A DNA stretch of 63,877 nucleotides, filler included, from Pseudogymnoascus verrucosus (Eukaryota): assembly GCA_001662655.1 (NCBI GenBank). It is 7 parts of 7 records of this genome, joined end to end, with 100 filler letters (N's around TTAATTAATTAA, not from the genome) between each part and the next. Parts side by side here need not be neighbours in the genome. Positions count along the whole stretch, not along the records: positions 10,901 to 20,908 come from KV460310.1; positions 21,009 to 30,868 come from KV460311.1; positions 30,969 to 40,201 come from KV460312.1; positions 40,302 to 49,415 come from KV460313.1; positions 49,516 to 58,386 come from KV460314.1; positions 58,487 to 63,877 come from KV460322.1; 1 more part is not named here. One strand, 5' to 3'. Below the pieces are notes generated by a model. The model saw only the letters and a program-made list of their open reading frames with translations. It was not told the origin of the DNA and searched no databases. Below are positions 11,356-62,473 of the stretch, one piece after another (within the stretch, counting starts at the first letter, position 1; every line of letters starts with the position of its first letter). A program made the position numbers and the translations under genes.

Positions 11356-11826
11356 ACGTAGGTTATGGCTATACCGGGACTATGGCCATACCGGGAATCC
11401 GGCAACCACCACTAAATAAAGAGTCACGTGACCTAAATGAAAACTGTAATAACTTTTACAATAGTGCCTATAAAGCTTAATCCTCTTATGTTCTTACTCT
11501 TTATCTACATATATACTATAGCTAAATGTTTTAGAGTGTAAGCTAGCCTTAGAAAGGAGTTATTTATAGTTTAAGTTTTGCCATATAAATATTTTGTATA
11601 GTAAAAGTTTAAACCTTAATATCTCTTATAAAACACAACTAGTACTACTAATGTTTTCATATATATTAGATAACTATATAAATATCGTTAATATAAGAGG
11701 GCTAGGCTATACATCTACTAATTAAAAAGTTATTAAGGTTTTCATTTTAGTCACGTGACCCTCTATTTGGTGGTGGTTGCCGGATTCCCGGTATGGCCAT
11801 AGTCCCGGTATGGCCATGACCTACGT
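11356..11826. mobile_element. MITE, 471 bp, TIR core CCATACCGGGA
   Basis: TIRs at both ends and TA TSD. It is inserted immediately upstream of the ATG of a minus-strand element whose 5' TIR (core CCAGACCTGCT) lies at ~11888-11926. Confidence 0.9.
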
Positions 11827-11926
11827 TATAGTAGTGTTGGTGGTTGTAGTTAGGGGTTTGGTGGATTAGTCCTAGATTTTGGTGGGGTAGCAGGTCTGGC
11901 CATGTAGCAGGTCTGGCCATGACCTA

Positions 11927-12882
11927 ACGTAGGTCGTGGCGTAACGGGTGTAATGGCGTAACGGGGGTATGTACCTTTACAGCTAAACTTGTAACGTAGG
12001 TCATGGCCTAAAGGGCTACATGGCCTAAAGGGCTATTCTAGAAACCACACCAAAATCCACGCTACGTGACTAAAATTAAAACCTTAATAACTTCTGTAAT
12101 AATGGTTATAAATCTTAATGCTCTTAGACTATTACTCTTTATATAATCATCTAATATATGTAAAAACGCTAGTAGCGCTAGTCTTATTTTACAATAAATA
12201 TTAAGGTTTTAACTTTTACTATATAAAATATTTATATAGTAAAACTTAAACTATAAATAACTCTTTAATAAGACTAGCTTACATTATTACAAATTAAACC
12301 CTAATATATGCATATATAAAGAGTAATAATATAAGAGGATTAAGCTTTATAACAGTTAATTAAAAAGTTATTAAGGTTTTAATTTTAGTCACGTGACGTG
12401 GATTTTGGTGTGGTTTCTAGAATAGCCCTTTAGGCCATGTAGCCCTTTAGGCCATGACCTACGTTAAGCAATAGTACTTAGAACCAAAAACTTCAAACCT
12501 AAATAACTCTATGAATAAAATTAGTAAAGCTTATTCCTTGTATATATTAGAACTGTATATAATACTCTTTTATATAAAAAAACGCTAATAGCACTATAAT
12601 TGTTTTGCATAAGTTATTAAAGGTCTAAGATTTTACCATACAAAATATTAGTATGGTAAATCTATAATTGTTAATAACTTCCTTATATAACTAGCTTACA
12701 GGCTGAAATTTCTATGTCGAATATATGTATATATGAAGTTTTTATATACAAAAGTATTATACTTTACATCACCTACTTAAGTAGTTATTAAAGGTTTTAA
12801 TTCTAGTCACGTGATATAAATTCGCTAGCAAAATACCACTACCCCCGTTACGCCATTACACCCGTTACGCCACGACCTACGT
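11927..12882. mobile_element. MITE, TIR core CGTAACGGG, with a nested MITE
   Basis: Matching TIRs ACGTAGGTCGTGGCGTAACGGGTGTAATGGCGTAACGGGGG at both ends, TA flanks. Confidence 0.88.
11994..12464. mobile_element. MITE, 471 bp, TIR core CCTAAAGGGCT (nested)
   Basis: Matching TIRs, long subterminal inverted repeats, TA TSD. Confidence 0.9.
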
Positions 12883-13123
12883 TAGGGTAATTTAAACTTA
12901 TTAATAGGATATAAATAATAGCACTAGTAGTACTAGCGTTTTTAAATGAAGTAAACACCTATATATAGAACCTAAGTTTTAAATAGTTAAGGTGTATGAT
13001 TTTTATTAGCAGAGATTTTTAGATTTTTAGTTTTATAAACATAAGTACCTTTACATACAAATTTGGCTGTAAAGGTACATTAGGCCCATTACGCCATTAG
13101 ACCCATTACGCCATGACTTACGT
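12883..13123. mobile_element. Truncated MITE, TIR core CGTAATGGG(T/C)CT
   Basis: Half of the common MITE body plus a single TIR ending GACTTACGT|TA. Confidence 0.75.
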
Positions 13124-13990
13124 TATGTGTTCTAAGTTATTATGTATGTTTGTTGTTTCTTTGTTTACATGTAATAGTGTTATTATGTATATTACTACTC
13201 TAACGCATACGTAATAATAGTGTTACATGTAAACAAACAACAAACAATAAACAAACAACAAATTCACGTGATAACTTAGAGCACGGTAGGAACAACAAAC
13301 TACGTAATAACCTAGAGCATAGGTGTAGAAGATATAGCTCATGTGATAACTTAGGACACAGGTAGAATAGTACACTAGTAGGTTTATATGAAAGGGTTTT
13401 CCTTTAACGTAAGTCGTGGCGTAACCGGGCTAATGGCGTAACCGGGCTATGTACCTTTGCAGCAGAATTTATATATGAAGGTACTTAAATCTACAAACTT
13501 TAAACTTAAATAACTCTATTAATAAAATTATTAGAACTTATTCCTTATAGACTATTACTCTTTATATACTAATATACTATAGTTAAATTTTGAAGAACGT
13601 AAGCTAGCCTTATTAAAGAGTTATTTATAGTTTAAGTTTTGCTATACTAATATTTTGTATAGTAAAAGTTTAAACCTTAATATCTCTTAGAAAACAAATC
13701 TAGCACTACTAGCGTTTTTATGCATATTAGATTAGCATATAAAGAATAATAGTCTAAGAGGATTAAGGTTTATAATCACTATTATAAAAGTTATTAGGGT
13801 TTTAAATCTAGTTACGTGTCCTTCGATTTGGTGGGGTGAGTAGGTAGCCCGGTTACGCCATTAGCCCGGTTACGCCACGACTTACGTTATACGAACGTAG
13901 AATTAAACGTTTAGAAAGTTTTTTTCTAAGACTTAAACCTATAATAAAGCCAACAAAGTCTAATAAAAGCACATTTATTATCATAAAAAT
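13124..13990 (-). repeat. Unclassified AT-rich dispersed repeat (family Y); hosts MITE insertions
   Basis: Reverse complement of GTTGGCTTTAT..TTAAGTCTTAG..TTTCTAAA..AAACCTACTAG plus GTTCTA(A/G)GTTAT sub-repeats. Related sequence lies at ~22122-22460, 38330-39500, 40346-41300, 58130-58241 and 61447-61890. Confidence 0.6.
13407..13887. mobile_element. MITE, 481 bp, TIR core CGTAACCGGGCT
   Basis: Matching TIRs and TA TSD. A near-identical inverted copy lies at 22587-23067. Confidence 0.9.
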
Positions 13991-14091
13991 GGGCATGTAA
14001 AAGCTAGACGGTTCCTTAAATATCGTAAATTAAAAAAGGATTATAAGTCTAAGTTATCTTAAAAGAAGAGTAACTACAAGGATAATAAGAA

Positions 14092-14512
14092 CGGTTAATG
14101 ACTAAATTGCCACCTAAAATATCAAAAAGGACTGAATTACCACCTAACTGTTTTAAAATGACCAAATTGCCACCCTATAAATTTACAACTTAACTTAACT
14201 TATCTATAATAGTACTCTACACTTTAACTTAAAACATAACTTAGTTACTAGTATCACTACTTACTTATAACTATTAATTAAGCATATATAACACTATAAA
14301 GGCTTTGTAATAAGCATACTATGTTTTAGTCATGTAACATACTACTTTATATAAGCATAATTTATTACTAGAGTTAAGGGTAAGCTACAGATTATTTTAG
14401 AGCTAACTTATGTTCTATATTAAGAGTAGATATAGATAATAGCTAAGTTAAATTGTAGAGTACTATTATAGGTAAGTTAACTTAAGTTGTACATTTATAG
14501 GGTGGCAATTTA
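14092..14512. mobile_element. Non-autonomous Mutator-like (MULE) element, left part; remainder at 19508-19580
   Basis: Long (~130 bp) TIRs with three GAC(T/C)(G/A)AATT(G/A)CCACC sub-repeats. The 9-bp TSD TAATAAGAA is at 14083-14091 and, reverse-complemented, at 19499-19507. Confidence 0.8.
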
Positions 14513-15021
14513 ACGTAGGTCGTGGCGTAATCGGGAGTATGGCGTAATCGGGAGGAGGTACCTTTATAGCAAACTTAGTATGAAAAGGTACTTAATTTTT
14601 AAAAAATTAATTAATTTATAATGCCTTTAATAAAAATATTAGGGCTTATCCCTTTTATATATAGGAAGTGTATAAGGCTACCTAATGTATACGAAAACAC
14701 TAGTAGCGCTAGCGTCTTTCTACACAAGTTATTTAAGTTTTAAAGTTTTGCTATATAAAATTTTAGTATAGTAAGTCTAAAACTGCTAATAACTTTATAA
14801 GCACACTAGCTTACATACTAGCGTTATTAATTATTAATGTATATGTGTATGAAGATCATAAGCATAAAAGGACTAAGCCTTAAAATGCCAATTACAGAAG
14901 TTATTAAGAGTTAAAGAGTAGATCATGTAATCCTTAGTTTTGCTGTGGCAGTCGGTTTGATGGGGTCGCTTACCCCACTATCCCGATTACGCCATCCTCC
15001 CGATTACGCCACGACCTACGT
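14513..15021. mobile_element. MITE, 509 bp, TIR core CGTAATCGGGA; left breakpoint of the inversion
   Basis: Matching TIRs and TA flanks. An inverted copy of the same length is at 19581-20089. Confidence 0.9.
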
Positions 15022-15048
15022 TAGTCCCGGTATGGCCATGACCTACGT

Positions 15049-19507: not shown

Positions 19508-19580
19508 CGGTTAATGACTGAATTGCCACCTAAAATATTAAAAAGGACTGAATTGCCACCTAACTGTTTTAAAATGACTA
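19508..19580. mobile_element. Displaced, inverted right TIR end of the MULE-like element at 14092
   Basis: Its reverse complement continues exactly from GGTGGCAATT|TA at 14512 and ends at the matching 9-bp TSD. Confidence 0.82.
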
Positions 19581-20089
19581 ACGTAGGTCGTGGCGTAATC
19601 GGGAGGATGGCGTAATCGGGATAGTAGGGTAAGCGACCCCATCAAACTGACTGCCACAGCAAAACTAAGGATTACATGATCTACTCTTTAACTCTTAATA
19701 ACTTCTATAATTAGCATTTTAATGCTTAGCCCTTTTATGCTTATGATCTTCATACACATATACATTAATAATTAATAACGCTAGTATGTAAGCTAGTGTG
19801 CTTATAAAGTTATTAGCAGTTTTAGACTTACTATACTAAAATTTTATATAGCAAAACTTTAAAACTTAAATAACTTGTGTAGAAAGACGCTAGCGCTACT
19901 AGTGTTTTCGTATACATTAGGTAGCCTTATACACTTCCTATATATAAAAGGGATAAGCCCTAATATTTTTATTAAAGGCATTATAAATTAATTAAATTTT
20001 TAAAAATTAAGTACCTTTTCATACTAAGTTTGCTGTAAAGGTACCTCCTCCCGATTACGCCATACTCCCGATTACGCCACGACCTACGT
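19581..20089. mobile_element. MITE, 509 bp, TIR core CGTAATCGGGA; right breakpoint of the inversion
   Basis: Near-identical inverted copy of 14513-15021. Confidence 0.9.
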
Positions 20090-20908: not shown

Positions 20909-21008
20909 NNNNNNNNNNNNNNNNNNNNNNNNNNNNNNNNNNNNNNNNNNNNTTAATTAATTAANNNNNNNNNNNNNNNNNNNNNNNNNNNNNNNNNNNN
21001 NNNNNNNN

Positions 21009-25158: not shown

Positions 25159-26702
25159 ACGTAGGTCGTGGCCATACCGGGACCATGGCCATACCGGGAT
25201 TGTGGGGTAGCGACCCCATCAAAAGTATAAGGAGCAGCTTTAAGAAAAATCAACTTCAACCAACTCATTAATTACTATATTAATATGGTGCGTAAGCGTA
25301 GCTTAAAGACTCAAGAACGTGATAAACTTATACTTAAAGCTATAGCTAGAGTTAAATCTGGTTTATATAAATCAGCAAATGATGCTGCAAAGGCCTTACA
25401 ACTTAGGCTAGATACAGTCGTCAACTATATTAAAGGGCGACGCACCTTACATAAACACGCACACTTAAAGCATCAATTACTATCTCAAACTTAAGAAAAA
25501 ACACTTTTAAAGTGGATAAAAGAGCTTACAAATAGTAGTTATACTCCTAGCCATTAACGTAAGTCATGGCGTAACCGGCACAATGGCGTAACCGGCATAA
25601 TGTCACTTTACACTGAACTTTGTATAGAAAGGTACTTACTTCTAATGATTTTTTAAATGATCATAACTTTTGCACTTTTGACTGTACAGCTTAGCTATTT
25701 TGTATGGTAATAGTACGCATATTGTTCTATTATGTATAGAAGCTATAAAATATTCACGACCTTATTAAAAAAGTTGATTTTTTTTGGTGAGGGAACAACA
25801 CATGATTATGCCGGTTACGCCATTGTGCCGGTTACGCCATGACTTACGTTAGATATTACAGGAGGTTGCAGATGAAGTCCAGTTAAATAAGTGTTGCGCG
25901 TTTTTCAGCCTCAACAACAACACCTACAACAACAACAACAACAAGAACCTCAAACTTAACAACCTTAAATACCTAAGTTACCTCTTAGGCAAGATTAGGT
26001 TCTACAATTTATTCAAAGGCATCCTAACTTACATGTTAAGTTAGGACGTAGAGTTAAGGCATAGAGGATGAATAGGGTAACAAAAGAGGTGTTAAAGGGG
26101 TAGTTTAACATGTATAAAAGCCTTATAATAGAGCTAAAAATCGAAAACTATAACACTTACAATATAGATGAGACTAGATTTTTAATTAGAACTATATAAT
26201 CTATACGAATTATAGTCGACTCTACACTTTATATGCGTTTTTAGGCTTATCCTAGCTAATAGGAATAAGTGTTTGCTATTAAATGCATCTATATAGACAG
26301 AATAGCTATTAAATCTCTTATTATCTTTAAAGGATAGAATATACTATAAAGCTAGATTCTAAAGGAAGTTATACAAAAATGGCACTTCTCTATAAACACA
26401 AAAGGGTAGACAAGCAATCTTTATAGATTAGAGTAGTTAAAACGTGTTTTTAAGCCCTTTACAAGAGTGAAAGCAACACTTCTAAATAGAAAACTACAAT
26501 AAAGGCTCCCTATTTATAATAGCTATAATAGCTATACAAGTAGAAGCTTTATATTACACTACATTCAAAATTGAATATCGCTCCTTATAATACCTCCTTA
26601 TACATCCTATGTGCTATAACTACTTAATATTTCGATTTTTAGGCCCTTAAAGCAACACCTTACAACTGCCCTCTTATACCTAAATAAGGTGCAACTCCTA
26701 TA
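25159..26702 (+). mobile_element. Heavily RIPed pogo/Fot1-like transposon, TIR core CCATACCGGGA, ATG at 25285, interrupted by nested elements
   Basis: 5' TIR, MVRKRSLKTQERDKLILKA.. N-terminus, and a DDD region with many stops. Confidence 0.88.
25557..25849. mobile_element. Short MITE, 293 bp, TIR core CGTAACCGGCA
   Basis: Matching TIRs, TA TSD. An inverted copy lies at 42076-42385. Confidence 0.9.
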
Positions 26703-26760
26703 ACGTAAGTCGTGGCGTAACGGGACGGATGGCGTAACGGGACGCTTTCCTAGAGCTATA

Positions 26761-28761
26761 ACGTAGGTCATGGCCTAAGTGCTGCCATGGTCTAAGTGAC
26801 AATTTTAGATACCCTACTAAAATCTAGGACTAAACTACCTACCTACTAATTTAGAAAATTGAAAATAAGTTAATAATTACAATGCTAATTCATCTAAATC
26901 GCTGTCATATAGCTCTTCTTCACTCTCTTCATCTATTTCCTCAGTTATAGCCTCGTTTATAGGTTGTGGTGTTGTTCTAGGCCTCTGTGAAGCTGCGGCT
27001 GTTGCTGTTGCTGCCTCTGCTTCTATAACTTGCGACCGGAGTTCTTCTGTAGAAATGTGGAATTGACCCTTCAAAACTGCTCTTTTACCCTTATTCTGTG
27101 TTCTTCGCTTTTGGATAATTGAACGTAAGTTATTACACTCTCTCTTTTAAAGGATATTGCGTGTATTAAGGCGTTCTGACTCATCTGCTAACTTATGAAT
27201 ATATCGCTTTGTAGGAGTATTCAAAACACCCTGACTTATTGTAGAAGAGAGTATAGAATTCGCTTTTTGGAGTGTATTAAAATCAGGTGGACTGCTGTTT
27301 AAGAATACCTTCTCAAAAATGTCATGCTCTGTAGGAGTATGTAGCCGTTCTAATACTACGACGTCTGTAGTAGGAAGCGTAGCTGCTCGAATGACTGTCT
27401 GCGGCTGGAATGGCTGTAGCCCACTCCCTCTCCAAGCAGAAGTTATATTTGAAGTCGAAAATCCAGCTTCTCTTGCTTTAATATATGCCTCCATCCATTC
27501 TAACTTATGTATGCGTAGGAGTTGTGCCTCATTAAGGTGCGAAAGAGCTGTTGTAAGGTGTTGCTTTAAAGGTCCAAAAATTGCAACATCAAGTGGCTGT
27601 AGAACATGAGATGTATGAGGAGGTAGAATAAGGAGCGATATTCGATTCTGTATGCAGTGTGATATAAAGCTTCTACTTATATGGCTATCATGGCCATTGC
27701 AAATTAGGAGCCGTTGCTGTAGTCGTCCATTTTGTGTTGCTTTTGCTCTTGTAGAAGGCTCAAAAACGCGTTTTAGCCACTCTAATCTATGAAGATTACT
27801 TGTCCATCCCTTTGTATTTACAGAGAAGTGCCATTTTTGTATAACCTCCTTTGGAATCCAGCTCTGTAGTATGTTCTGTCCTTTAAAAATAATAAGGGGG
27901 TCGATAGCTGTTCTGTCTATGCAAATGCATTCAACAGCAGACACCCATTCCTGTCGGCTAGGATGAGCTTGAAATCGCGTACGGAGTGTAGAATCGACTA
28001 TAATTCGTGTAGATTGCATAGTTCCAATTGAAAATCCAGTTTCATCCATATTATAAGTGTTGTAGTTTTCGATTTTTAGCTCTGTTATAAGGCTCTTGTA
28101 CGCGTCAAACCACCCCCTTAACACCTGCTTTGTGACCCCATTCATCCTTTGTGCCTCAACTCTACGTCCTAACTTAACACGTAAGTTAGGATGCCTTTGA
28201 ATGAATCGTGGAACCCACTCTTGCCCAAGAGGTAAGTTAGGTATTTGAGGTTGAGGTTGTTGAGGTTGTTGAGGTTGTTGAGGTTGTTGTGTTTGTTGTT
28301 GCTGTTGTTGTAGTTGAGGCTGAAAAACGCGACACTTATTTGACTGGACTTCATCTGCAACCTCTCGTAATATCCGATGGCTAGGAGCGTAGCCGCTTGT
28401 AGTAAGCTCCTTAATCCACTTTAAGAGCGTTTGCTCTTGATTTTTTGACAGGAGCTGTTGTTGTTGTCGCGCCTCACGTCGCGTAGAGCCACCTCTTAGA
28501 CGCTTAAGGACAGTATTAGGGTGTAGGCCTAGAGCAATTGCTGCAGCATTTGCTGATTTAAATTTTCCTAACCTAACTCCTTCAATTGCCTTAGAAACAC
28601 GTAAATCAAGCTCTTGAGCCTTAATATTCTTACGTTTTACCATTTTTAACTATATAGTAGAAGTAGTAACTACTAGTCGGCTGGTTTGATGGGGTCACTA
28701 CTACCACTACCCCGCTAAATTGTCACTTAGACCATGGCAGCACTTAGGCCATGACCTACGT
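26761..28761 (-). mobile_element. Full-length (2001 bp) pogo/Fot1-like transposon, TIR core CCTAAGTG
   Basis: Matching TIRs at both ends, TA TSD, transposase at 28643-26877. Confidence 0.95.
26877..28643 (-). pseudogene. DD35D transposase inactivated by RIP-type changes
   Basis: CAA>TAA stop at 27147-27149. The second catalytic Asp is changed (LLICNGHDSH versus LLICDGHDSH in other copies). Confidence 0.88.
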
Positions 28762-29741
28762 TACCCCACTAAAGTAAGTGTAGTTATTTACTACACCCTA
28801 TTAACCACCTAAAATCAATTATAGTGCGTCAAAAAAGTCAAAAATCAAAGGAATTAGAAGCTTTATTAGCTAAAGCTATCCTAGGCATCTAAAATAAGAA
28901 GTATAAGTCGTTATATAAGGCTGCTAAGGCCTTAGGGTTAAGCTGCAATACTATTAGTAAGCGCGTTAGCTAACAACAGCCTTCAAGGCAAGAAGCGCGT
29001 TAAAAACAGCAACTATTATCTAAAAATCAAGAGCGTACCTTATTAAAATGGATAAAGGAGCTTACAAATAGTGGCTACGCACCTAGCCATCGAATCCTAC
29101 AAGAGGTTGCAGATGAAGTCTAGTTAAATAAGTGTTGTGTTTTTTAGCCTCAACAACAACACATATAACAACACCTACAACAACAACCTTAAACTCAACA
29201 ACTACAACTACAAATACCTCCTAAGCTACCTCTTAGGCAAGATTAGGTTCCGCGATTCATTTAAAGGCATCCTAACTTACATGTTAAGTTAGGACATAGA
29301 GTTGAGGCACAGTGGATAAATAGAGTGACAAAAGAGGTGTTAAAGGGGTGGTTTAACGTATACAAAAGCCTTATAACAGAGCTAAAAATCGAAAACTATA
29401 ACACCTACAATATAGATAAGACTAGATTTTCAATTAGAACTATGCAATCTATACGAATTATAGTCGACTCTACACTCTATACGCAATTTTAGGCTTATCC
29501 TAGCTAATAGGAATAGGTGTCTGCTGTTAAATGCATCTATATAGACAGAACAGCTATTAAACCCCTTATTATCTTCAAAGGACAGAATATACTACAAAGC
29601 TAGATTCTAAAGGAGGTTATACAAAAATGGCACTTCTCTGCAAATACAAAAGGATAGACAAGCAATCTTTATAGATTAGAGTAGTTAAAACGCGTTTTTG
29701 AGCCCTCTACAAGAGCAAAAGCAACACAAAACGGACGACTA

Positions 29742-38879: not shown

Positions 38880-38899
38880 TATATGTTCTATTTACTATA

Positions 38900-39384
38900 A
38901 CGTAGGTCATGGCGTAATGGCTACCATAACGTAATGGCTGTAGTTGCCATTGCAAGCTAATTTGTATTATGTGATCTACATTTCAACCTTTAATAACTTT
39001 TTAACTAAGTTTGTTAAAGTTTAATGCTTTTGTACTTAGAGACTTAATATACACATACATTATACTTAAAAATATTAACTTATAAGCTAGTCTAATAAGG
39101 AAGTTATTAGCCATTTTAGATTTACTATATATAAAAAAATGTATAGCAAAATCTAAAACCTTAATGAACTTATTTAACAATACGCTAGAGCTACTAGTGT
39201 CTTTATTTATAGTAGATGATTATATAGAGTTTTTATATATAAGAGGGCTAAACCTTACAATTTTTATTAATGGAGTAGTTAAGGTTCTAAATTCTGTAAT
39301 TGTAAGTACCTTTACATACACGTTTAGCTGTAAAGATACATTGCAGCCATTACGCCATTGTAGCCAGTACGCCATGACTTACGT
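38900..39384. mobile_element. MITE, 485 bp, TIR core CGTAATGGCT
   Basis: Imperfect matching TIRs, TA TSD, common MITE body. Confidence 0.85.
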
Positions 39385-39615
39385 TATGTTTTCTATTTAC
39401 TTTATGTTCTAAGTTATTATGTGTGTTCTATTTACATTATGTTCTAAGTTACTACGTGTGTTCTATTTATATTACGTTCTAAGTTATTACATAAGTATTT
39501 ATTTAAAAATGACCATTTTAATTTAAACTGTTCTAGCTCTCTCTCTTTAATTATTCTGGCTCTTTCCTTAATAGGAATAATATCACATGGCTAAGCTTAA
39601 CAGCTATGTGCATTA

Positions 39616-40345: not shown

Positions 40346-40374
40346 TAACGCACATGTTGGCTTTATAGGGCTTA

Positions 40375-41039
40375 ACGTAAGTCGTGGCCATACCGGCTCA
40401 ATGGCCATACCGGCTCATTTGCCGACCCCACCAAAAGTTGGTCACATTTACATCACATGACCTACAATTGAATTCCTAATAACTTTTGTAATAAAAATAG
40501 TAGGACTTAACCCTCTTATTTAAAGAGTCTTTATATACCTATACCTTATAATTAAAAACACTAGCATATAAGCTAGTGTTATAAGGAAGTTATTAACAGT
40601 TTTAGATTTGCCATACTAAATTTTTATATGATAAAAGTTAAAATCTTTAATAGTTTATGCAAAAAGAAGCTAGTGCTATTAGCGTTTTTATATATAGTAT
40701 ACAATAGTTTAAAGTTTCTATATATAAGAGGGACATACTCTAGCATTTTTATTAAAGGAGTTATAATATTCTGATTTTTGTAAGTGTAAGTATCATTACA
40801 TACAAACTTGTATGTAAAGGTACTAAAAGCCGGTATGGCCATTGAGCCGGTATGGCCACGACTTNNNNNNNNNNNNNNNNNNNNNNNNNNNNNNNNNNNN
40901 NNNNNNNNNNNNNNNNNNNNNNNNNNNNNNNNNNNNNNNNNNNNNNNNNNNNNNNNNNNNNNNNNNNNNNNNNNNNNNNNNNNNNNNNNNNNNNNNNNNN
41001 NNNNNNNNNNNNNNNNNNNNNNNNNNNNNNGACTTACGT
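40375..41039. mobile_element. MITE, TIR core CCATACCGGCT (right end spans an N gap)
   Basis: TIRs at 40375 and ~40830-40864. The flanks GGGCT|TA|AGTCTTAG reconstitute repeat family Y. Confidence 0.82.
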
Positions 41040-42509: not shown

Positions 42510-42697
42510 ACGTAAGTCATGGTGTAAGCGGCGACATGGTGTAAGCGGCGATTCTGAAAACCACACCAAAATCCACTAAACTACTAACTTAGAAAATCGA
42601 AAATAAGTTAACAATTATAATGCTAATTCATCTAAATCGCTGTCATATAACTCTTCTTCACTCTCTTCATCTATTTCCTCAATTGTAGCTTCGTGTA
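42510..42697 (-). mobile_element. Truncated transposon 3' end, TIR core TGTAAGCGGCG
   Basis: TIR plus minus-strand acidic tail (..YDSDLDELAL*). Confidence 0.82.
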
Positions 42698-42702
42698 ACG
42701 TA

Positions 42703-43196
42703 ACGTAAGTCGTGGCGTACTGCGGGTAATGGCGTACTGCGGGTATGTACCTTTACAGCTAAATTTATATGTGAAGGTACTTAAATCCTAAAACTTCAAA
42801 GTTAAATAACTCTGTTAATAAATTTATTATAATTTATTCCTCTTATATAAAGGGTCTATATATACTAATAATTAATATGTGAAAACGCTAGAAGTAACTA
42901 TATTAAGTTACATAAGTTATTAGAAGTATAAGTATTTGCTATACAAAATATTTGTATGGCAAATCTACACTTGTTAATATCTTCTGCATAAGGCTAGCTT
43001 ACATAATAGCGTAATTAAGCATAGCGTATACGTATATAAACATCTTATTTATAAGATGAATAAGTTCTAATAATTTTATTAATAGAGTTATTAGAGGTTA
43101 AAAGTTTTTAGGATTTAAGTACCTTTACATATAAATTTAGCTGTAAAGGTACATACCCGCAGTACGCCATTACCCGCAGTACGCCACGACTTACGT
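42703..43196. mobile_element. MITE, 494 bp, TIR core CGTACTGCGGGT
   Basis: Matching TIRs and long subterminal IRs; inserted in the TA of another TIR. Confidence 0.92.
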
Positions 43197-43241
43197 TAGG
43201 TCGTGGCGTAAGCAGTCTAATGGCGTAAGCAGTCTACCCTA

Positions 43242-43724
43242 ACGTAAGTCGTGGCGTAATGGGTATAATGGCGTAATGGGTATACTGAAATTACAAGCGA
43301 ATTTGTGTCACGTGACCTATATTTAAACGTTTAATACTTTTTAACTAAGCTAATTAAAGCTTAATGCTTTTAGATTTAGAATCTTTAGATACTTATACAT
43401 TATATTTAAAAATGCTAACTTGTAAGCTAGCCTAATAAGGAAGTTATTAGCATTTTTAGATTTACTATACAAAATTTTTATATGGCAAAACCTAAAACCA
43501 TTAATAACTTATGCAAAAACAAAGCTAGAGCTACTAGTGTCTTTACATATAGTAGATAATTATATGGGGTTTCTATATATAAGAGGGTTAAGCCTTACAA
43601 ATTTTATTAAGGGAGTAGTCAAGGTTCTAAATTCTATTATTATAAGTACCTTTGTATACATATTTAGCTGTAAAGGTACACTGTACCCATTACGCCATTA
43701 TACCCATTACGCCACGACTTACGT
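43242..43724. mobile_element. MITE, 483 bp, TIR core CGTAATGGGTAT
   Basis: Matching TIRs, TA TSD. A partial copy lies at 58242. Confidence 0.92.
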
Positions 43725-45015
43725 TACCAAACCACCAAATTTAAGGTCACGTGACTAGATTTAAAACCCTAATAACTTTTATAATAGTGATTATAAACCT
43801 TAATACTCTTAGACTGTTACTCTTTATATGCTAATATAATATGTATAAAAACGCTAGTAGTGCTACCTTTGTTTTACAAGAGATATGAAGGTTTAAACTT
43901 TTGCCATACAAAATATTAGTATAGGAAAACTTAAACTATAAATAACTCTTTAATAAGACTAGCCTACGTTCTCACGAATTTAATTGTAGTATATTAGTAT
44001 ATAAAGAGTAATAGTCTAAGAGGAATAAGTCTTAATAATTTTATTAATAGAGTTATTTAAGTTTAAGATTTTAAGATCTAAGTACCATTACATATAAATT
44101 TAGCTGTAAAGGTACATAGGCGCATTACGCCATTAGACTGCTTACGCCATGACCTACGTTATACTATTATACCTTAATAAGGCGCAACTCCTATAAATAT
44201 AAAAAGTAGAGTAGCTTGAAGCATATATAAAAGTAAGAGAATTAGTATTTTCTAACTTAAATATTACTTCTATATAGAGAGGAAGTAGGCTATAGCCATT
44301 CTAGCTACAAACAGTCATTTAAGCAGCTACGCTTCCTATAATAGACGTAATATTAGAATGGCCTTATACTCCTATAGAGCATGATATTTTTAAGAAGGTA
44401 TTCTTAAACAGCAGTCTATCTGATTTTCAAACACTTCATAAGGCAAATATAGTGCTTTCTATAGCCTTAAATTAAGGTGTTTTGAATACTCCTACAAAGC
44501 GATATATTAATAAGTAGCAGATGAGTTAGAACGCCTTAATACATACAATACCCTTTAAAAAAGAGAGTGTAATAACTTACGCTTAATTATTCAGAAGCGT
44601 AGAGTACAGAATAAGGGTAAAAGAGCAGTTTTGAAGGGTTAATTCTATATTTCTACAGAAGAACTCTAGTCGCAAGTAGTAGAAGCAGAAGCAGCAACAG
44701 CTTCATAGAGGTCTAGAATAACGCAACAACTTATAACTGAAGCTATAATTGAGGAAATAGATGAAGAGAGCGAAGAAGAGCTTTCTGAGGATGATATAGA
44801 TGAATTAGGGTGGTAGTAATTGAATTATTTGCGATTTTTCTAAGTTAGTAGTTTAGTGTTCTTGCTCTGGATTTTGGTGGGGTGAGCCAAGTCGCCGCTC
44901 TGGCCATGGCGCCGCTCTGGCCACGACCTACGTTAATAGTAATTTAGGCTTTTTTAAATTATATCTCATATCTACTATTACTATATAACATAATCTAGAT
45001 CGTGGTGTTCAACCT

Positions 45016-48475: not shown

Positions 48476-48626
48476 ACGTAGGTCATGGTGTAAGCGCTGC
48501 TATAGTATAAGCAACAATTCTAGATACCCCACTAACAACCAGGACTAAACTACTAAATTACTACCTTAGAAAATTGTAAATAAATCAATTACTACAATAC
48601 TAATTCATCTAAATTGCTATTATATA
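48476..48626 (-). mobile_element. RIPed transposon 3' end, TIR core TGTAAGCGCT
   Basis: Degenerate TIR plus acidic-tail homology. Confidence 0.7.
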
Positions 48627-48966
48627 ACGTAAGTCGTGGTCAGACTAGCTACATAGCCAGACTGGCTACTTAGCTCACCCTACCAAAACCAAGGTCACTA
48701 AACCAAAATTAAAACCATAATAACTTTTGTAATAGTGTATGTATATAAAGCTTAATCCTCTTAAATTATGTTTTTTCATATAATAATCTAACATGTATAT
48801 AAACACTAGTAGTACTAGCTTTGTTTTACAAGAGATATTAAGGCTTATATTTTTACTATTCAAATATTTATATAGTAAAACTTAAAACTATTATTAACTT
48901 ATATAAAAAGACACTAGTAATATTACCCTTTTTATATATAGTAGATACGTACTTAAAGTTTCTATA
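48627..48966. mobile_element. Partial MITE, TIR core CCAGACTGGCT
   Basis: One TIR plus the common MITE body, interrupted at 48967. Confidence 0.78.
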
Positions 48967-49415: not shown

Positions 49416-49515
49416 NNNNNNNNNNNNNNNNNNNNNNNNNNNNNNNNNNNNNNNNNNNNTTAATTAATTAANNNNNNNNNNNNNNNNNNNNNNNNNNNNN
49501 NNNNNNNNNNNNNNN

Positions 49516-53493: not shown

Positions 53494-54479
53494 TCGATTC
53501 TCTCCATCCAATATATATCCGAAAGGTGGTGACCTGATAGCATTTGATCTAGTTGAGGAAAACTACAGGATTAGCTCGGGAAGGGCAGACGAGGAAACTT
53601 TTCGATGTCATGTATTATTAATCGAAATAAAAGTAGCTTGCCTGAAGATGCAAAAAAATGGAAAATAAAATATAACACTACTACTACTACTCCTAGAAAT
53701 TAAGAGTCATGGTCCAGCGTTATGTGCCGTGATTTATCTTTACTTCTTGCATGGCGACCTGGTAGTCTCCCGCCGCATTTGGAGGCGCGTGACTGATCAT
53801 TTGGTATAATTTGCACAGATTCGCAGGTTCATTCTCATCTTTCATAAAATGCCTTCTCTGAATCTGCTTTCATGCCTCTTCAGTCTAGTTTAATGGTAAT
53901 GTTGTATGTATGTAGATCGGTCGCTAATCCATCGAGGCTTTTTCAGCTGCCAAGATCATCTTCCCGTTCATCTGTAAGAACGGGAAGTTGATCTTGTCCC
54001 CGATGCCTATGCCGGCGCCACATCCATATGAAAGACTGTGATAGAGAGCATACTATACCAAACTAGTGGAGCAGCTGAATCGGAAACCTGACTGCTCCAC
54101 ATAAATGGTATGTTCGGTCTCAAAGGAAACTCAATTAGCGTAATATCTGCTTTTCATAACGCTTCATGCCGTTGCTAGACATGTTCCAATAAATACTTAG
54201 CAAACAAGCATTAAATGAATATCACTTCTAGTTTTGAAGGTGTTTTTGACGATGGCTGGTTATTGACGACCAGCATCGCTAGCCTCCGTATAGCGGTGAC
54301 CTTACTCAGGAGAGAATTAGGACTGCTCAAGGACTATAAAGCCCAAGTAATTCCCACCTGATATTTTTTTTTCATCATCATCAAAGCATTCGCAATCAAC
54401 ACTTCCTTCAAACACTTCCATCCATATTCTACTACTCGTCTTCCCGATATACAATCGTCTCACACAAACAACTTTCAAA

Positions 54480-54926
54480 ATGCAAGTCCCAACCACCTTC
54501 GCTGTTCTCTTCTTTGCCCTTGGGGCCGCAGCCTTACCATCGATTGGTAGCCCAACTGTTGGACCCAAAGGCAACGCACAGTGCGGTAAAAATCAAGTCA
54601 TCTCATGCTGCAACACCAAGTCTACCAGCGTTGGCGCTGGTGGCCTCCTCGGACTCGGAGGCGTTCTTAATGGCGTTCTGGGTGGCAACTGCAACCCTCT
54701 CACCATCCCAATTGGTAAGTCTTGGTATCCCAGTCACATTTTAACAGAACTGACGGGCAAATAGTCGGCGTCGCTGTCCCACTCAGCCAAGCTTGCGCTG
54801 GCAACCAGGCCGCGTGCTGCACAGGCGACCAGCATGTAAGTACTCTAGCTCATCATCCCGGCCGAACAATTACTAATTGACTTTCAGGGCCTGGTTAACA
54901 TCCAATGTACCAACGTCCTTATTTAA
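54480..54926 (+). CDS. Class I-type hydrophobin; introns 54715-54764 and 54836-54887
   Basis: Signal peptide, spliced eight-Cys pattern C-X7-CC-X26-C-X17-C-X6-CC-X11-C, and TATAAA upstream at ~54335. Confidence 0.92.
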
Positions 54927-55531: not shown

Positions 55532-58000
55532 ATGTCATTAACAGAGCTTGCCCAGGCCGTTCTTTGGGTATCCATTGCCGTCACTATGCTATTATTGCTG
55601 TGCCTGCTAATCAAGGCAAGGGAGCTCCGGAAACTGCCTCTCACAAACACACGATTCTATTTGCTACACCAGCTCAAGATTGTAAGAGGGAGTTGACTTC
55701 TACGGCTTGAAATTTCTAGTATTCACCAAAATAAACAGATCATTGGGCTTATGGTTGCTGTCATCATAATTGTGTCGTTGGCATGGCTCTCTCAGCCTGC
55801 TCATATCAAGGGCCCATACTTAACATCAGTCTTTCTTTCCGCCCTCGCTGCCATCTGTTTAAACCTTCTTCTCCACCTAGAACAACGAATTTCCTAACCC
55901 GCGGGCCCCGATATAGTCACTGTGTATCTCATCGGTTCCATAGTTTGCGACGCGATTATATTGACAATACCACATGTAGAGCCGACGCTATGGGATGCAT
56001 CACTACTGCTAGTGCTGGTCCGATGCGTTGGAAACACCTCGATCTTCAGCCTCAAATGTTGTAGAGGTGGAATTACTTCAACTGAAGCAGCGGCAAACTA
56101 TATCTCGACTGAAGAGGTCAAAGGAATCTTGAGCCGTTCTTCATATGGATCAACCCAATCATAGCTCAAGGATATAGACATATCCTCACAAAAGAGAGGA
56201 TCCCATACCTCAGACAGGACCTCAAGTCTCGTCATGTAAGACAGGCAATGATAGAGACATGGCGCTAGAGAGGAGGTTGGTCATTATGATCGCTGTATAG
56301 CTGTAGGCTGACCAACCTCTTAACAGCAAAACCCGAGACAAAATCACACTACCCTTAGCCCTATTCCTGTGCCTTAAGGAGCCTTTTCTTTTAGTAATTA
56401 TCCCCCGGCTATTTTTATAATTGGCAGGTTTTGCAAGGCCCAGACTTTTTGGATCCCAAGAGGCAATATGAGGGTGTGATTCACCCATTTCTTCTCCCTC
56501 CGTCTCTTTACTACCGCGTCTCTGCACGCCAGCCTTGCCCCCCGTGACAGTGCCCGAGGCGCTATTATGCCCCCCCGATCTGATACTCACTGCCCATCCT
56601 AATCAGACGTTCCATACATTACGTATCTTCTCCGCTGTATGGCGACTGACAATTAGCGGGTTATGTGATAGTTACTGCCTTTATTACAGTAAACGTAGGC
56701 CTGGTAGTGAGTTCTTAACTAAATCACACTACTTAACTCCACTCAACTGACTTTTCCAAATTCCTTCAGATATCCACGGCTGCATACTAGCACAGCCTTA
56801 ACCGTCTCTAACTAAGCACAAAGAGTGCACTCATCAGGCTCGTTCATGACAAGATGATGACTCTTCTAAGTACGATGGATGTGGATGGAGAGGCCGTTAC
56901 GCTCATGAACACAGATGTAGAGGGCCTCAAAGGTATTGCTGAGATATTCTATGAGACTTAGGCACACGTATTGGAAGTTATAGTTAGCATGCCGTTGCTA
57001 GCAAGACAAGTTGGCTCGCTGTGGTTGCTTTTGATACTTCTCATCTTTCGTAAGTTCTCGATACCTACAATATTTTCAGAGAAGCACTAAAGCTACTGAT
57101 ATTGCTTTGTCCAAATTGTAGGAGTAGTCACCTAGCCCCGAACCTGAAAGCAGCCTAGAGAGATTGGAATATAACGACGCAAACCCGGATTACAGCCACC
57201 ACTAACTACCATGCTCAACCTAATGAAAAAGGGTCAAAATGCTAGGGGTTCAAAATTGCCTTGCTAAAAGAATCTAATGGCTCCGAATTAGGGAGATTTT
57301 TGTTACTTCCCGTGTTAGATGGATGATGGTATATGCTAATGTAGTTGCCAACGCTCTCGGAATATTCACACTAGCCATAATAATTGCCCTCTTTGCTACA
57401 TGGCTTAACGTAGGTCGTGGCGTAATCGGGAGTATGGCGTAATCGGGAGGAAGTACCTTTGCAGCAAACTTTGTATGTAAAGGTACTTAATTTTCGAAAA
57501 TTCAATTAATTAATATTGCCTTTAATAAAAATACTAGGGCTTATTCCTTTTATATATAGGAAGTGTATAAGGCTATCTAATATATAAGAGAACGCTAGTA
57601 TTGCTAGCGTCTTTTTGCATAAGCTATTAAAGTTTTAAAGTTTTGCTATACAAAATTTTAGTATGGTAAATCTAAAACTGCTAATAACTTTGTAAGCACA
57701 CTAGCTTACATACTAACGTAATTAATTATGATGTATATGTATGTAAAGATTATAAGTATGAGAGGGCTATGCCTTACAAAGCCAATTATAGAAGTTATTA
57801 AGAGTTGAAGAGTAGATCACGTGATCCTCGGTTTTGCTGTGGCAGTCGGTTTGATGGGGTCGCTTACCCCACTATCCCGATTACGCCATACTCCCGATTA
57901 CGCCACGACCTAGGTTAAACACACTAAGGGAGTTAATCTTAATGCTAAGACAGGCTTTACAACAAGGCCGTTTTAGTCGGGGTTACGCACCTAGTACTTA
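55532..58000 (+). pseudogene. ABCC/MRP-type ABC transporter pseudogene (N-terminal TM regions), with a MITE insertion
   Basis: Motifs STEEVKGILSR, RYSLPILIRRSIHYV, GEAVTLMNTDVE..FYET*AHVLEV..LLARQVG, WNITTQTRI and VRWMMVYANVVANALG, with stops and frameshifts. Confidence 0.75.
57408..57915. mobile_element. MITE, 508 bp, TIR core CGTAATCGGGA
   Basis: Matching TIRs (right terminus AGGT instead of ACGT), TA TSD. It is a less mutated relative of the 14513 and 19581 copies. Confidence 0.9.
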
Positions 58001-58386: not shown

Positions 58387-58486
58387 NNNNNNNNNNNNNN
58401 NNNNNNNNNNNNNNNNNNNNNNNNNNNNNNTTAATTAATTAANNNNNNNNNNNNNNNNNNNNNNNNNNNNNNNNNNNNNNNNNNNN

Positions 58487-58613: not shown

Positions 58614-58648
58614 TATATGTATCGCTGCTCTAATAAAAATAAAGCCTA

Positions 58649-59131
58649 ACGTAAGTCGTGGCGTACTGGCGGGAATGGCGTACTGGCGGTATGTACCTTT
58701 ACAGGTACATTTGTATGTAAAGGTACTTATTATAGCTAAAATTAAAACCTTAATTACTTCTTTAATAAATTTATTAAAGGTTAGCCCTCTTATATATAGA
58801 AACTATATATAACTATGTACTATATGTAAAGACACTAATATGTCTAGCGTTTTTTTACACAAGTTATTAAAGGTTTTAGGTTTTACTATACAAATTGTTT
58901 GTATAGTAAATCTAAAATTGTTAATAACTTCTTTATTAGGTTAGCTTACAATCTAACGTTTTTAAGTATAATATATCTATATATACAGTCTCTAAGTATA
59001 AAAGTATTAAACTTTAACAAGCTTAGTTAAAAAGTTATTAAAGGCTGAAATATAGATCACGTGATATAAATTCACCTGTAAATGCGACTACCGCCAGTAC
59101 GCCATTCCCGCCAGTACGCCACGACTTACGT
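58649..59131. mobile_element. MITE, 483 bp, TIR core CGTACTGGCGG
   Basis: Matching TIRs, TA TSD. Confidence 0.92.
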
Positions 59132-59337
59132 TAGACTAAAGTAAAAAAAGAGCTAAATAAGGAAAAGATGTAGAAAACAATATTAAGCAATACTTTGTAT
59201 AAACGAGTAATACTTTATATAAACAAATGGAAAAAACCCTTTATATTAAGTGATAATAAGCAACAAATAAGCAAAACAAATAACATATAAAGAAGACGGC
59301 TATAGGGGTATATATCTAACGTTACCTTCCTGCACTA

Positions 59338-61328
59338 ACGTAAGTCATGGCGTAACGGGACGGATGGCGTAACGGGACGCTTTCCATACCCCACCAAAAT
59401 CTAGGACTAAACTATTAAATCACGAACTTAAAAAATTGTAAATAATTTAATTACTACCACCCTAATTCATCTATATCATTGTCAGAAGGCTCTTCTTCGC
59501 TCTCTTCATCTATTTCCTCAATTATAGCTTCGTCTATAGGTTGTTGCGTTATTCTAGACCTCTGTGAAGCTGTTGCTGTTGCTGCTTCTGCTTCTACTAC
59601 TTGCGACCGGAGTTCTTCTGTAGAAATATGGAATTGACCCTTTAAAACTGCTCTTTTGCCCTTATTCTGTACTCTACGCTTCTGAATAATTGAGCGTAAG
59701 TTATCACACTCTCTTTTTTGAAGGGTGTTGCGTGTATTAAGGCGTTCTAACTCATCTACTAACTTATTAATATATCGCTTTGTAGGAGTATTAAGAACTC
59801 CACGACTTATTGTAGAAGAGAGCACTATATTTGCTTTATGAAGTGTTTGAAAGTCAGGTGGACTGCTATTCAAAAATACCTTCTCAAAAATATCATGCTC
59901 TGTAGGAGTATGTGGTCGTTCTAATACTACTACGTCTGTAGTAGGGAGCGTAGCTGCTCGAATGACTGTTTGCAGCTGGAATGGCTGTAGCCCACTTCCT
60001 CTCCAAGCAGAATTGATATTTGAAGTTGAAAATCCAGCTTCTCTTGCTTTAATATATGCCTCCATCCATTCTAACTTATGTATGCGTAGGAGTTGTGCCT
60101 CATTAAGGTGCGAGAGAGCAGTTGTAAGGTGTTGCTTTAGAGGTCCAAAAATTACAACATCAAGTGGTTGTAGAACATGAGATGTATAAGGAGGTATTAT
60201 AAGGAGCGATATTCGATTTTGAATGCAGTGTAATATAAAGCTTCCGCTTATATGGCTGTCATGGCCGTCGCAAATAAGGAGCCGTTGCTGTAGTTTTCCA
60301 TTTTGTGTTGCTTTTGCTCTTGTAGAGGGTTCAAAAACGCGTTTTAGCCACTCTAATCCATGAAGATTGCTTGTCCATCCTTTTGTATTTGCAGAGAAGT
60401 GCCATTTTTGTATAACCTCCTTTAGAATCTAGCTTTGTAGGATGTTCTGTCCTTTAAAAATAATAAGGGGGTCAATAGTAGTTCCGTCCATGCAGATGCA
60501 CTCAACTGCAGAGACCCATTCCTGTCGGCCAGGATGAGCTTGAAAACGCGTACGGAGCGTAGAGTCGACTATAATTCGTGTAGATTGCATAGTTCCAATT
60601 GAAAATCCAGTCTCGTCTATATTGTAGGTGTTATAGTTTTCGATTTTTAGCTCTGTTGTAAGGCTTTTATACGCGTCAAACCACCCCTTTAACACCTCTT
60701 TTGTCACCCCATTCATCCTTTGTGCCTTAACTCTACGTCCTAACTTAACGCGTAAGTTAGGATGCCTTTGAATGAATCGTGGCACCCACTCTTGCCTAAG
60801 AGGTAAGTTAGGAATGTGTTCTTGTTGAGTTTGTAGTTGTTGAGTTTGTTGTTGTTGTTGTTGTAGCTGTTGAGGCTGAAAAACGCGACACTTATTTGAC
60901 CGGACTTCATCTGCAACCTCACGTAATATCCGATGGCTAGGAGCGTAGTCGCTTGCAGTAAGCTCCTTAATCCACTTTAAGAGCGTTTGCTCTTGTGTTT
61001 GAGATAGTAATTGAAGCTTTGAGTGTGCTTGTTTATGTGAGGTACGTCGCCCTTTAATATGGTTAAGGACTGTATCTGGCCTAAGTTGTAAGGCCTTTGC
61101 AGCATCATTTGCTGATTTATATAAACCAGATTTAACTCCAGCTGTAGCTTTAAGTATAAGCTTATCGCGCTTTAGAGTCTTTAAACTGCGTCTACGCACC
61201 ATTTTAATATAGCAATTAATAAGTTGGTTAAAGTTGATTTTCTTAAAGCTACTCCTTATACTTTTGATGGGGTAGCCCACCCCACATTCCCGGTATGGCC
61301 ATAGTCCCGGTATGGCCATGACCTACGT
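59338..61328 (-). mobile_element. Full-length (1991 bp) chimeric pogo/Fot1-like transposon with non-matching TIRs
   Basis: 5' TIR core CCATACCGGGA, 3' TIR core CGTAACGGGACG. Transposase at 61202-59454 with a TGG>TAG stop at 60429-60431. Confidence 0.88.
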
Positions 61329-61446
61329 TAGGGTAGTAGTAATTAAATTATTTGCGATTTTTTAAAGTTAATGATATTTTTGATAGGGTGGCCTTAACCC
61401 TACTATACCCATTACGCCATTAGCCCGGTTACGCCACGACTTACGT
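61329..61446 (+). mobile_element. Transposon 3' tip with a hybrid TIR
   Basis: Outer unit CGTAACCGGGCT, inner unit CGTAATGGGTAT. Confidence 0.8.
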
Positions 61447-61890
61447 TACTTGTTGGCTTTATATGGGCTTAAGTCTTAGAAGGAAAAACCTTGTCTATTT
61501 CTAAAGGTCTAATCCTATGTTTATACAAAGGGGTTTCCTTTTATATAAACCTACTAGCATACTATTCTACACGTGTTCTAGGTTATCACGTGGTGTTGTT
61601 GTTCTTACACATGTTCTAGGTTATCACGTGAGTGTTTGTTTGTTTATTTACACGTGACTTTGTTATTACGTGCGTTGCCACTCTAACAGTACTATTAGCG
61701 TGTTAACGCATGTGACTAGAATGTTACTTGTAAACAAACAAACAAACGAACAACTCAGGTAATAACTTAGAACGCTAGTAGCTTCATACAAAGAGTAAGC
61801 CTTTAAATGAACGCGTAACTTAACCTTTAGAAATAGACAAGTACGCTAGTAGGTTCTTACAAAAAGTAGAGCCTTTATTTAATTAAACCC
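61447..61890 (+). repeat. Best-preserved copy of unclassified repeat family Y
   Basis: GTTGGCTTTATATGGGCTTAAGTCTTAGAAGG.. plus CACGTGTTCTAGGTTATCACGTG sub-repeats and GTTTGTTT/AAACAAAC inverted blocks. Confidence 0.6.
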
Positions 61891-61990
61891 CTAAACGTAA
61901 GTCGTGGTCAGACCGGCTACATGGCCGGACCGGCTACCCCACCAAAATCCAGAATAGAACCACCAAACCCAACCACCACCACTAATACTA

Positions 61991-62473
61991 ACGTAAGTCG
62001 TGGCGTACTGTCGCTAATGGCGTACTGTCGGTAATGTATCTTTACAGCAAATATTATATGAAAAGGTACTTATAATAGCGAAAATTAAAACATTAATTAC
62101 TTCTTAAATAAATTTATTAAGGGTTAGCCCTCTTATATATAGGAACTATGTATAATTATCTACTATATAAAAAGACACTAGTAGCACTAGCGTGTTTTTA
62201 CATAAGTTATTAAACATTTTAAGTATTACCATACAATTATTTACTATGGCAAATATACATCTGCTAATAACTTCTTAATTAGGCTAGCTTACATGCTACA
62301 ATTTTTAAGTACAATGTATGTTTATATATAATATTATAATATAAAAGCATTAAGCTTTAACTACCTTTAATAAAAAGTTATTAAAGGTTTAAATATAGAT
62401 CACGTGATGTTATTTACGTACAAAATTCCATAGCGACAGTACGCCATTAGCGACAGTACGCCACGACTTACGT
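61991..62473. mobile_element. MITE, 483 bp, TIR core CGTACTGTCG
   Basis: Matching TIRs, TA TSD; ends 4 bp before the transposase ATG. Confidence 0.92.

Follow-up and report, generated by a model that had tools for sequence, protein, structure and literature searches.

In the fungus Pseudogymnoascus verrucosus (GenBank assembly GCA_001662655.1), one non-coding body of a miniature inverted-repeat transposable element (MITE) is found behind many different terminal inverted repeats (TIRs), of which a large part are also carried by transposase-bearing Fot/pogo-like elements of the same genome, from which the MITE has probably captured them by recombination. The stretch of DNA analysed, referred to as the window, is 63,877 nucleotides long and was put together artificially from seven small contigs, between which lie six N44-linker-N44 spacers (10801..10900, 20909-21008, 30869-30968, 40202-40301, 49416-49515 and 58387-58486). 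Because of this, the density of MITEs in the window does not mean that they form a chromosomal cluster. The genome assembly itself comprises 30 Mb in 151 contigs and is fragmented at repeats.

One body under many TIR keys

All members of the family have ends with the same layout: TA is followed by ACGTARGTCRTGG, an 11-bp key, a 2-nt spacer and ATGG, after which the key is repeated. The TIR is thus 43 bp long and holds two copies of a variable key. Its exact tip occurs 262 times in the genome (256 in the first fetched set, six in contig C89), and all of these starts were retrieved. With nested insertions removed, the first set contains 66 complete elements: 53 of 440-530 bp, eight of 282-314 bp and five of 1939-2005 bp. 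MITEs of 471-513 bp with one common body, the 43-bp TIR and TA at both ends make up 52 of the 66, where TA was part of the search pattern and one mismatch was allowed. They contribute 137 of the 267 classified ends, with one to seven complete copies per subfamily, a low number for each key, although copies may have been collapsed in the assembly. Coding capacity is lacking (in 53 elements the longest stop-free stretch is 29-100 aa, and these contain no consistent open reading frame (ORF)). The window has 16 complete copies of 475-513 bp with 11 key types, partial copies add four keys, and 34 inner-key variants are found on the body overall. The sequence-only reading of this DNA, which had put the number at a dozen or more, was therefore right, and the eight MITEs it named all exist, their starts having been placed 2 nt inside the TA.

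The common interior is apparent after trimming 100 nt from each end. Among 35 representatives (595 pairs), with dinucleotide shuffles as a control, the median local alignment score is 115 compared to 24 for shuffled sequences, and 543 of the 595 pairs score above the best shuffle (45). Six interior motifs, with at most one mismatch, recur in 12-16 of the 16 window copies, which bears out the earlier claim of one interior under different TIR cores. Repeats in the window are high in TpA and low in CpA/TpG, which we take to be the signature of repeat-induced point mutation (RIP) and which, with the host genes, indicates an ascomycete; the MITE interiors, at 77% AT, have this signature as well. 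Against the five complete autonomous copies the interiors score as expected by chance (maxima of 26-32, compared to 27-29 for shuffles), the best match to a profile of the arms described below having an E-value of 0.81. The interior or long subterminal homology to a parent that marks a deletion derivative was not found in these copies, and only tracts of 20-34 nt at some ends are held in common. The body was said to have no similarity to the autonomous element, and this is correct for the interior, but inside some TIRs the first 20-34 nt are similar. The arm profile was run on the window and the fetched loci, where 136 of 147 strong arm matches have a TIR upstream, four are cut by family insertions, three lie at edges and four abut a family end; in ten loci of other pogo-like families the profile found no arm sequence. 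The whole genome was covered by three DNA searches with the body, in which the best 14-40 candidates were scored, and the matches fell in the same repeat-rich places. Since the body is absent from the autonomous copies found, the view that these MITEs are one lineage rather than a set of deletion derivatives holds.

The body is a degenerate palindrome of two homologous arms. All 104 arms align colinearly from TIR to centre, and in 23 of the 35 representatives the left-versus-right score is above the highest shuffled value. The arm consensus also shows weak self-complementarity (score 68, compared to at most 50 in 200 shuffles), in line with the earlier remark that the interior is partly self-complementary. 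Of 53 elements, 49 have a palindrome of the CATACAAA/TTTGTATG type at their centre; the motif recurs in module A and is found in 17 of 106 ends. Module A is present on 47 of the 137 MITE ends, and TCACGTGA (module B, which we take to resemble a basic helix-loop-helix (bHLH) E-box) on 59; both are absent from all 81 autonomous ends. The inner arms are of two types, X and Y, and the 52 elements are arranged as A-X/B-Y (23), B-X/B-Y (12), A-X/A-Y (5), B-X/A-Y (3), with two X arms (6), or as a deep A-A lineage (3). An inversion between arms would account for B-X/A-Y, while the elements with two X arms combine one half each from two families. In the 12 B-B copies the arms differ by 0-12% beside the TIR, 2-34% further in and 44-51% inside, a gradient of the kind that copying from the tip inward leaves, whereas the arms of A-B copies are 47-75% different beside the TIR. 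The A-B, B-B and A-A forms recognised earlier are real, but the B ends at 43240, 59133 and 62475 have TCACGTGA without the CACCAAA tract, and what had been called interchangeable end modules are better read as polar conversion tracts between the two arms.

In the window, B-B copies include the MITE with key CCATACCGGGA at 11354..11828 (siblings 29740-30214 and 38406-38881, and 20090-20510 with insertions in both TIRs) and that with key CCTAAAGGGCT at 11992..12466 (partial sibling from 20509). The latter is nested in an A-B copy with key CGTAACGGGTG/GG (11925..12884), which is 487 bp long once the insertion is removed. Other A-B copies have keys CGTAATGGCTG (38898..39386, cognate autonomous end not found), CGTACTGGCGG (58647..59133) and CGTACTGTCG(C/G) (61989..62475). 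The MITE with key CGTAACCGGGC at 13405..13889 (sibling 22585-23069) is A-Y/B-X, its interior being inverted relative to the common A-X/B-Y. An A-A copy with key CGTACTGCGGG (42701..43198) sits in the TIR of the element that starts at 42696, and a B-A copy with key CGTAATGGGTA is found at 43240..43726 (partial sibling from 58240). A partial MITE with a key of TCAGACCGGCT type (48625..48964, plus strand) is cut by an autonomous 3' end at 48965. TA-flanked nested insertions such as these record past movement of the MITEs, and the enzyme that moves them would, judging from the common TIRs, be that of the autonomous elements. Five of the 66 complete elements are inserted in a TIR, five more adjoin one, and 25 lie inside some family member; insertion into TIRs seems only slightly above the TA share. 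The MITE at 20090-20510 was hit twice, two different MITEs having entered its two TIRs, one each, at an identical TA of the inner key.

Smaller relatives also exist. A 297-bp non-autonomous element (25555..25851), consisting of TIR, A module, one arm unit and TIR, matches the arm profile with an E-value of 6e-11 and may be a plausible model of the ancestor of the body. It is restricted to key CGTAACCGGCA, which the 490-bp body lacks, and its sibling at 42074-42387 has three key repeats at one end. Two mini-elements with the family tip were seen, one of 129 bp with TIRs flanking an A-like module (L170:2501-2629; positions outside the window are given as locus:position) and one of 75 bp that is a nearly pure inverted repeat (L057:2485-2559). 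L055:736-1183 (448 bp) and L066:1803 have the family TIR tip and a CGTACTT(G/C)ACC-type key, with at most faint likeness to the body; the former was dropped as a body member (interior score at most 30, arm profile E-value 0.005).

Autonomous partners and footprints of end transfer

The autonomous partner belongs to the Fot/Fot-like pogo elements (DD35D), because its transposase combines HTH_Tnp_Tc5 (PF03221, E-value 5e-7) and DDE_1 (PF03184, E-value 7e-27) with a 35-residue spacing, the last seen in two window copies. Elements of this group are described as DD35D, with HTH_Tnp_Tc5 (with or without HTH_psq) and DDE_1, a TIR of 40-60 bp, a TA or TAA target and fungal hosts (PMC7386202). Here the autonomous TIR is 43 bp, with a TA target followed by ACGT; HTH_psq gave no match in the query transposase but is annotated on several homologues. 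A complete autonomous-type element with key CCTAAGTGCTG/TCTAAGTGACA lies on the minus strand at 26759..28763, with both domains in frame 27147-28643 and N at the second catalytic position. Another transposase-bearing copy, with 5' key CCATACCGGGA (59454..61330, minus strand), has a different N-terminal helix-turn-helix (HTH) and a broken reading frame. Among named homologues, a Pseudogymnoascus protein is closest (90% identity, with 66% of the query aligned), and proteins of Sclerotinia and Lipomyces are more distant. Complete copies with an unbroken transposase frame of ~606 codons are found at L150:2501-4425 and L036:2270-4208.

Across 32 autonomous 5' ends, every key is paired with an N-terminal HTH of its own, and the residues of the presumed recognition helix are distinct. 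This first HTH (HTH1) differs by 5% within a key and 41% between keys, compared to 6.7% and 16.5% for the linker and second HTH (HTH2). Four-fold transversions are also higher in HTH1 (0.37) than in linker and HTH2 (0.20), so some of the contrast is due to the downstream part having been homogenised, and positive selection on HTH1 is unsupported. Given this co-variation and what is generally known of such transposases, the keys are likely to set transposase specificity. The autonomous family looks modular, with about 16 distinct N-terminal HTHs sampled, one key each, on a far less divergent HTH2/DDE part (26759-28763, 59454-61330, 25157, 41567, 61893 and 5' ends in L031-L104).

In a strict key table, 28 inner-key variants occur on autonomous ends and 16 on both these and the MITE body; merging near variants by eye leaves about 30 on the body and 20 on autonomous ends. 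That some cores are common to MITEs and transposase-bearing copies is thus true of 16 of the 34, but CGTAACCGGCA, one of those put forward, sits on the separate 297-bp element and not on the 470-510-bp body. At some ends the likeness extends past the TIR. Key-specific subterminal tracts of 20-34 nt are found for CGTAATCGGGA, CCTTACCGACA, CGTAAGCGGTC, CCATACCGGCT and CGTAAGCGGCT, and no non-cognate end scores as well, except at L099:1854, where the best non-cognate end ties. In the 513-bp MITE with key CGTAATCGGGA at 14511..15023 (siblings 19579-20091 and 57406-57917), for example, 27 nt of the B end belong to the GGGG hairpin seen in the autonomous 5' end with that key, and the B end at 57917 has them too. 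In the same way, L048:1248 carries the GGGG hairpin tract of the CCTTACCGACA autonomous end, the end at 42696 has 20-22 nt in common with the CGTAAGCGGTC autonomous end, and the tract at L047:529 matches the CGTAAGCGGCT autonomous end. The CCATACCGGCT ends at 40373 and L099:1854 match different variants of that key, one each; the former is the B end of a partial MITE (40373..40864, plus strand), and its 21-nt tract matches the autonomous 3' end at 39614.

Of 47 end families, 40 have the same 2-nt spacer between the key repeats as their cognate, compared to 13.4 expected, under a loose cognate rule and with ends that are not independent. The loose rule ignores transitions and merges some keys (e.g. 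CGTAATGGGTA with CGTAACGGGTG), the key table above being stricter. Rare spacers (GG, GA, CC) are common to MITE and autonomous ends, such as the GA of the MITE at 58647..59133 and of autonomous ends like that at 50078.

Some elements appear to have been caught between two keys. The chimeric MITE at 42696..44161, 485 bp once two nested MITEs are removed, has a left end CGTAAGC(A/G)GTC and a right TIR that is half converted, with the outer repeat CGTAAGCAGTC (new key) and the inner repeat CGTAATGCGCC (old key). Its body is of the 13405 type, and ~100 nt near the A end are almost identical to those of a CGTAATGCGCC MITE. An autonomous 3' end (61406..61448, minus strand) is likewise hybrid, with the outer repeat CGTAACCGGGC and the inner repeat CGTAATGGGTA. 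Most differences between L099:4020 and its sibling fall within the first 100 nt at one end, and in L048:737 and L097:1505 the differences lie mainly at one TIR. Cores only 3.8-6.3% apart bear three keys, the TCAGACCGGCT key is found on two bodies, and (C/T)GTAAGCGGCG on two distant ones. The core of the CCTAAAGGGCT MITE (11992..12466) is 3.8% from that of the CGTAAGCGGCT MITE, and it retains the subterminal tract of the CGTAAGCGGCT partner, of the (C/T)GTAAGCGGC(T/G) autonomous type, and not that of its own partner; this tract is probably the footprint of an earlier partner.

Probable capture of ends and rival explanations

The common body, its palindromy, the shared keys, the tracts, the hybrids and the polar arm identity are all directly observed, and it is likely that they reflect end capture by recombination, in which sequence of an autonomous copy first replaces one end and is then copied to the other arm. 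An old non-autonomous lineage would here parasitise a Fot/pogo family split into many specificity classes, each with a TIR key and an N-terminal HTH of its own. A one-arm ancestor like the 297-bp element probably gave rise to the body by inverted duplication, with TIR-module-arm-arm-module-TIR as the outcome. From the tip inward, one end would then be replaced by that of an autonomous copy, with entry at the invariant tip ACGTARGTCRTGG and exit at ATGG or CACCAAA microhomology. This could happen if repair of an excision break switches template, or through insertion into a TIR and subsequent deletion between direct repeats. Template switching during gap repair has precedent in Tc1, and the route via insertion is possible because elements do sit in TIRs (5/66) and inside other family members (25/66). 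The new end could next be copied to the other arm, since the body is palindromic; short tracts would alter the TIR only, while long ones would yield B-B or A-A. The re-keyed subfamily would amplify with its new transposase and persist. Copying direction, repair route and the role of the keys in specificity are the parts of this scheme that we infer.

Relatives of the body were also found elsewhere, as the sequence-only reading had proposed to look for. The TIR pattern in metagenome contigs gave 70 stretches (63 loci), of which ten loci match the arm profile, and body relatives are found in contigs of runs X3 and X4 (26 and 29 of 30 bins), with little in X1 and X2 (4 and 6). Five same-key families in other genomes are 79-94% identical to those of this genome, and a key absent here occurs in other genomes both on the body (L122) and on a transposase-bearing end (L134). 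The pattern matches at L123, L137 and L171 are without repeated keys and look like chance. More distant genomes have module A ends with CGTAAC(A/G)CGGG keys (L152:2532, L159:2501, L158:1253), and a 66%-identical transposase with a CGTAACGCGGG key.

Several observations weigh against capture. For about one third of the keys on MITEs the assembly has no autonomous match, most A ends and TCACGTGA-only B ends have no tract past the TIR, and the hybrids are mostly single copies on short contigs that could be misassemblies. Key-body pairs are stable across genomes, so switches must be rare. Moreover, core distance follows that of the cognate autonomous 3' end, taken over its proximal 260 nt (r 0.44, p 0.002, n 12), in Mantel tests where the pairs were few and matched by hand and RIP blurs distances; four representatives whose two inner arms classed alike were excluded from these tests and from the core tree. 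This correlation is the best evidence for partial co-divergence, and it also fits switching biased to partners with similar ends. The tree comparison suggested earlier thus has a mixed outcome, as r for core distance is 0.15 with HTH1 (p 0.09, n 14), 0.10 with key (p 0.12, n 18) and 0.04 with C-terminal coding sequence (p 0.39, n 12), so that none of the three is followed.

It is possible, although we hold this only tentatively, that the body is itself active, with the CATACAAA/TTTGTATG hairpin motif of the centre and module A and the TCACGTGA of module B binding transposase or host factors and enhancing transposition. This would explain why the body wins every key; it is compatible with end capture and differs on why the body persists. 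The central motif in 49/53 elements and 17/106 ends, the length kept at 471-513 bp, and modules found on MITE ends (A on 47/137, TCACGTGA on 59/137) and on 0/81 autonomous ends all count in its favour, as does a pogo-like transposase that binds subterminal motifs of its MITE (PMC1636448). However, with DNA energy parameters the folds of single arms are no more stable than those of shuffles (z from +2.1 to -2.2; whole interiors z -0.4 to -11.2), there is no consistent ORF, and fold-back copying alone can maintain a central palindrome. Common descent could also account for the conservation of the body, and the earlier suggestion that it is functional gained no support from ORFs or from the folding of single arms. 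A little more speculative still is that the nested palindromic body is an adaptation for partner change, since it allows an end just captured to be transferred to the opposite arm, and that in this way one MITE lineage chases diversifying, possibly escaping, HTH/TIR pairs.

It is unlikely that the MITE simply split in step with the autonomous family, with keys following by point mutation, selection and homogenisation of the four repeats and without any sequence transfer. Such co-divergence agrees with the tracking of the 3' subterminal region (r 0.44) and the persistence of key-body pairs across genomes, and B-X bodies do broadly go with CACCAAAATC-type ends and A-X/B-Y bodies mostly with GGGG-hairpin-type ends. 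It leaves unexplained the key-specific tracts with matching hairpin loops, the rare common spacers, the half-converted TIRs, the occurrence of one key on distant bodies and of the CCTAAAGGGCT key on a body with another partner's tract, and it lacks the correlation with HTH1 or coding sequence. The sequence-only reading had offered end conversion or co-evolution; the conversion footprints are direct and make capture preferable to pure co-evolution, yet the 3'-end correlation keeps some part for the latter.

That each body derives from its own autonomous element, since lost, eroded by RIP or missing from the assembly, is very improbable. The assembly is indeed fragmented at repeats, only five complete autonomous copies were recovered, and derivatives of RIP-eroded parents, arisen by deletion, have precedent in Epichloe (PMC3227409). 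Still, all 262 TIR starts were retrieved, 136/147 arm matches have a TIR upstream with the rest at insertions, edges and family ends, the ten other pogo-like loci contain no arm, and 0/81 autonomous ends have the modules. Convergence of unrelated RIP-eroded sequence, or an assembly artefact, is suggested by the 77% AT of the interiors, their RIP signature and the joining of repeat-rich small contigs in the window, but is hardly credible when no shuffle scores above 45 and the median of the real interiors is 115, the equally AT-rich L055 element (448 bp, same tip) reaches at most 30, and the body recurs in other genomes.

Neighbouring sequence, known systems and significance

Other sequence in the window includes RIP-eroded repeats between MITEs at 13126-13404 and 13890-14510, one an inverted GT/AC-rich tract with short direct repeats and one an element with repeated AATTGCCACC motifs. 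Host genes were recognised by eye from motifs at 466-3156, 7750-9132, 32199-36377, 45779-47187 and 54340-54764, and are of glycoside hydrolase (GH2-like, GH7-like), NACHT-WD40 (with internal repeats), carboxypeptidase-like and hydrophobin-like kinds.

A conserved interior under different TIRs is already known from coral CMITEs, and it is the scale and the intermediates that are unusual here. The CMITEs are piggyBac elements of ~100 bp in six families with a TTAA target, for which the authors propose cross-mobilisation via a common tip (PMC2872659). As here, their interior, which has no known origin, is kept under different TIRs, and one family has TIRs and weak adjacent similarity in common with an autonomous element. 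In contrast to that one matched partner, the present family is Fot/pogo, ~490 bp long, with 34 key variants of which 16 are matched, and it has HTH co-variation, conversion footprints, a palindromic body and a TA target; it works alike but is not a member. In Anopheles, P-MITEs also coexist with several autonomous subfamilies per genome, with their ends and with interiors unrelated to the master, and AgaP2-P12MITE is a hybrid with ends of two subfamilies, like the hybrids described above; however, the interiors of P-MITE families are unshared, while here one interior serves most partners (PMC1562414). The MITEs of Epichloe festucae are likewise fungal, RIP-affected, TA-flanked and Tc1/mariner-type, but they are deletion derivatives or, as in EFT-27, have a TIR in common with unrelated interiors, the reverse of the present case (PMC3227409). 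A functional analogue is found in the short interspersed nuclear element (SINE) superfamilies CORE, V and MESC, which combine a conserved non-coding core, proposed to ease end exchange, with exchangeable partner-derived ends; SINEs are retrotransposons that use template switching of reverse transcriptase and are not the same class (PMC4758252). Many key/HTH classes per genome, or a MITE with a common body, are not described for the Fot/Fot-like family in the available part of PMC7386202. In a literature search, thin in subscription journals, neither this family nor the capture of matched keys by a MITE was found to have been reported.

MITEs are usually pictured as being born repeatedly, by deletion or from chance TIR pairs. 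The present family bears on how they arise and outlive the loss of a partner transposase, as one parasite body movable by many enzymes may outlast any single partner. With many partners for one body in one genome, and switch intermediates as well, partner change becomes directly testable. The HTH-key pairs of the autonomous elements are a natural panel of HTH-DNA recognition, and the matched pairs could serve for decoding or building orthogonal pogo transposases. If the palindromic body is indeed an adaptation for partner change, some 16-28 natural HTH-key pairs would amount to a readable recognition code, and the genome would record a lock-and-key arms race of a DNA transposon against its own parasite.

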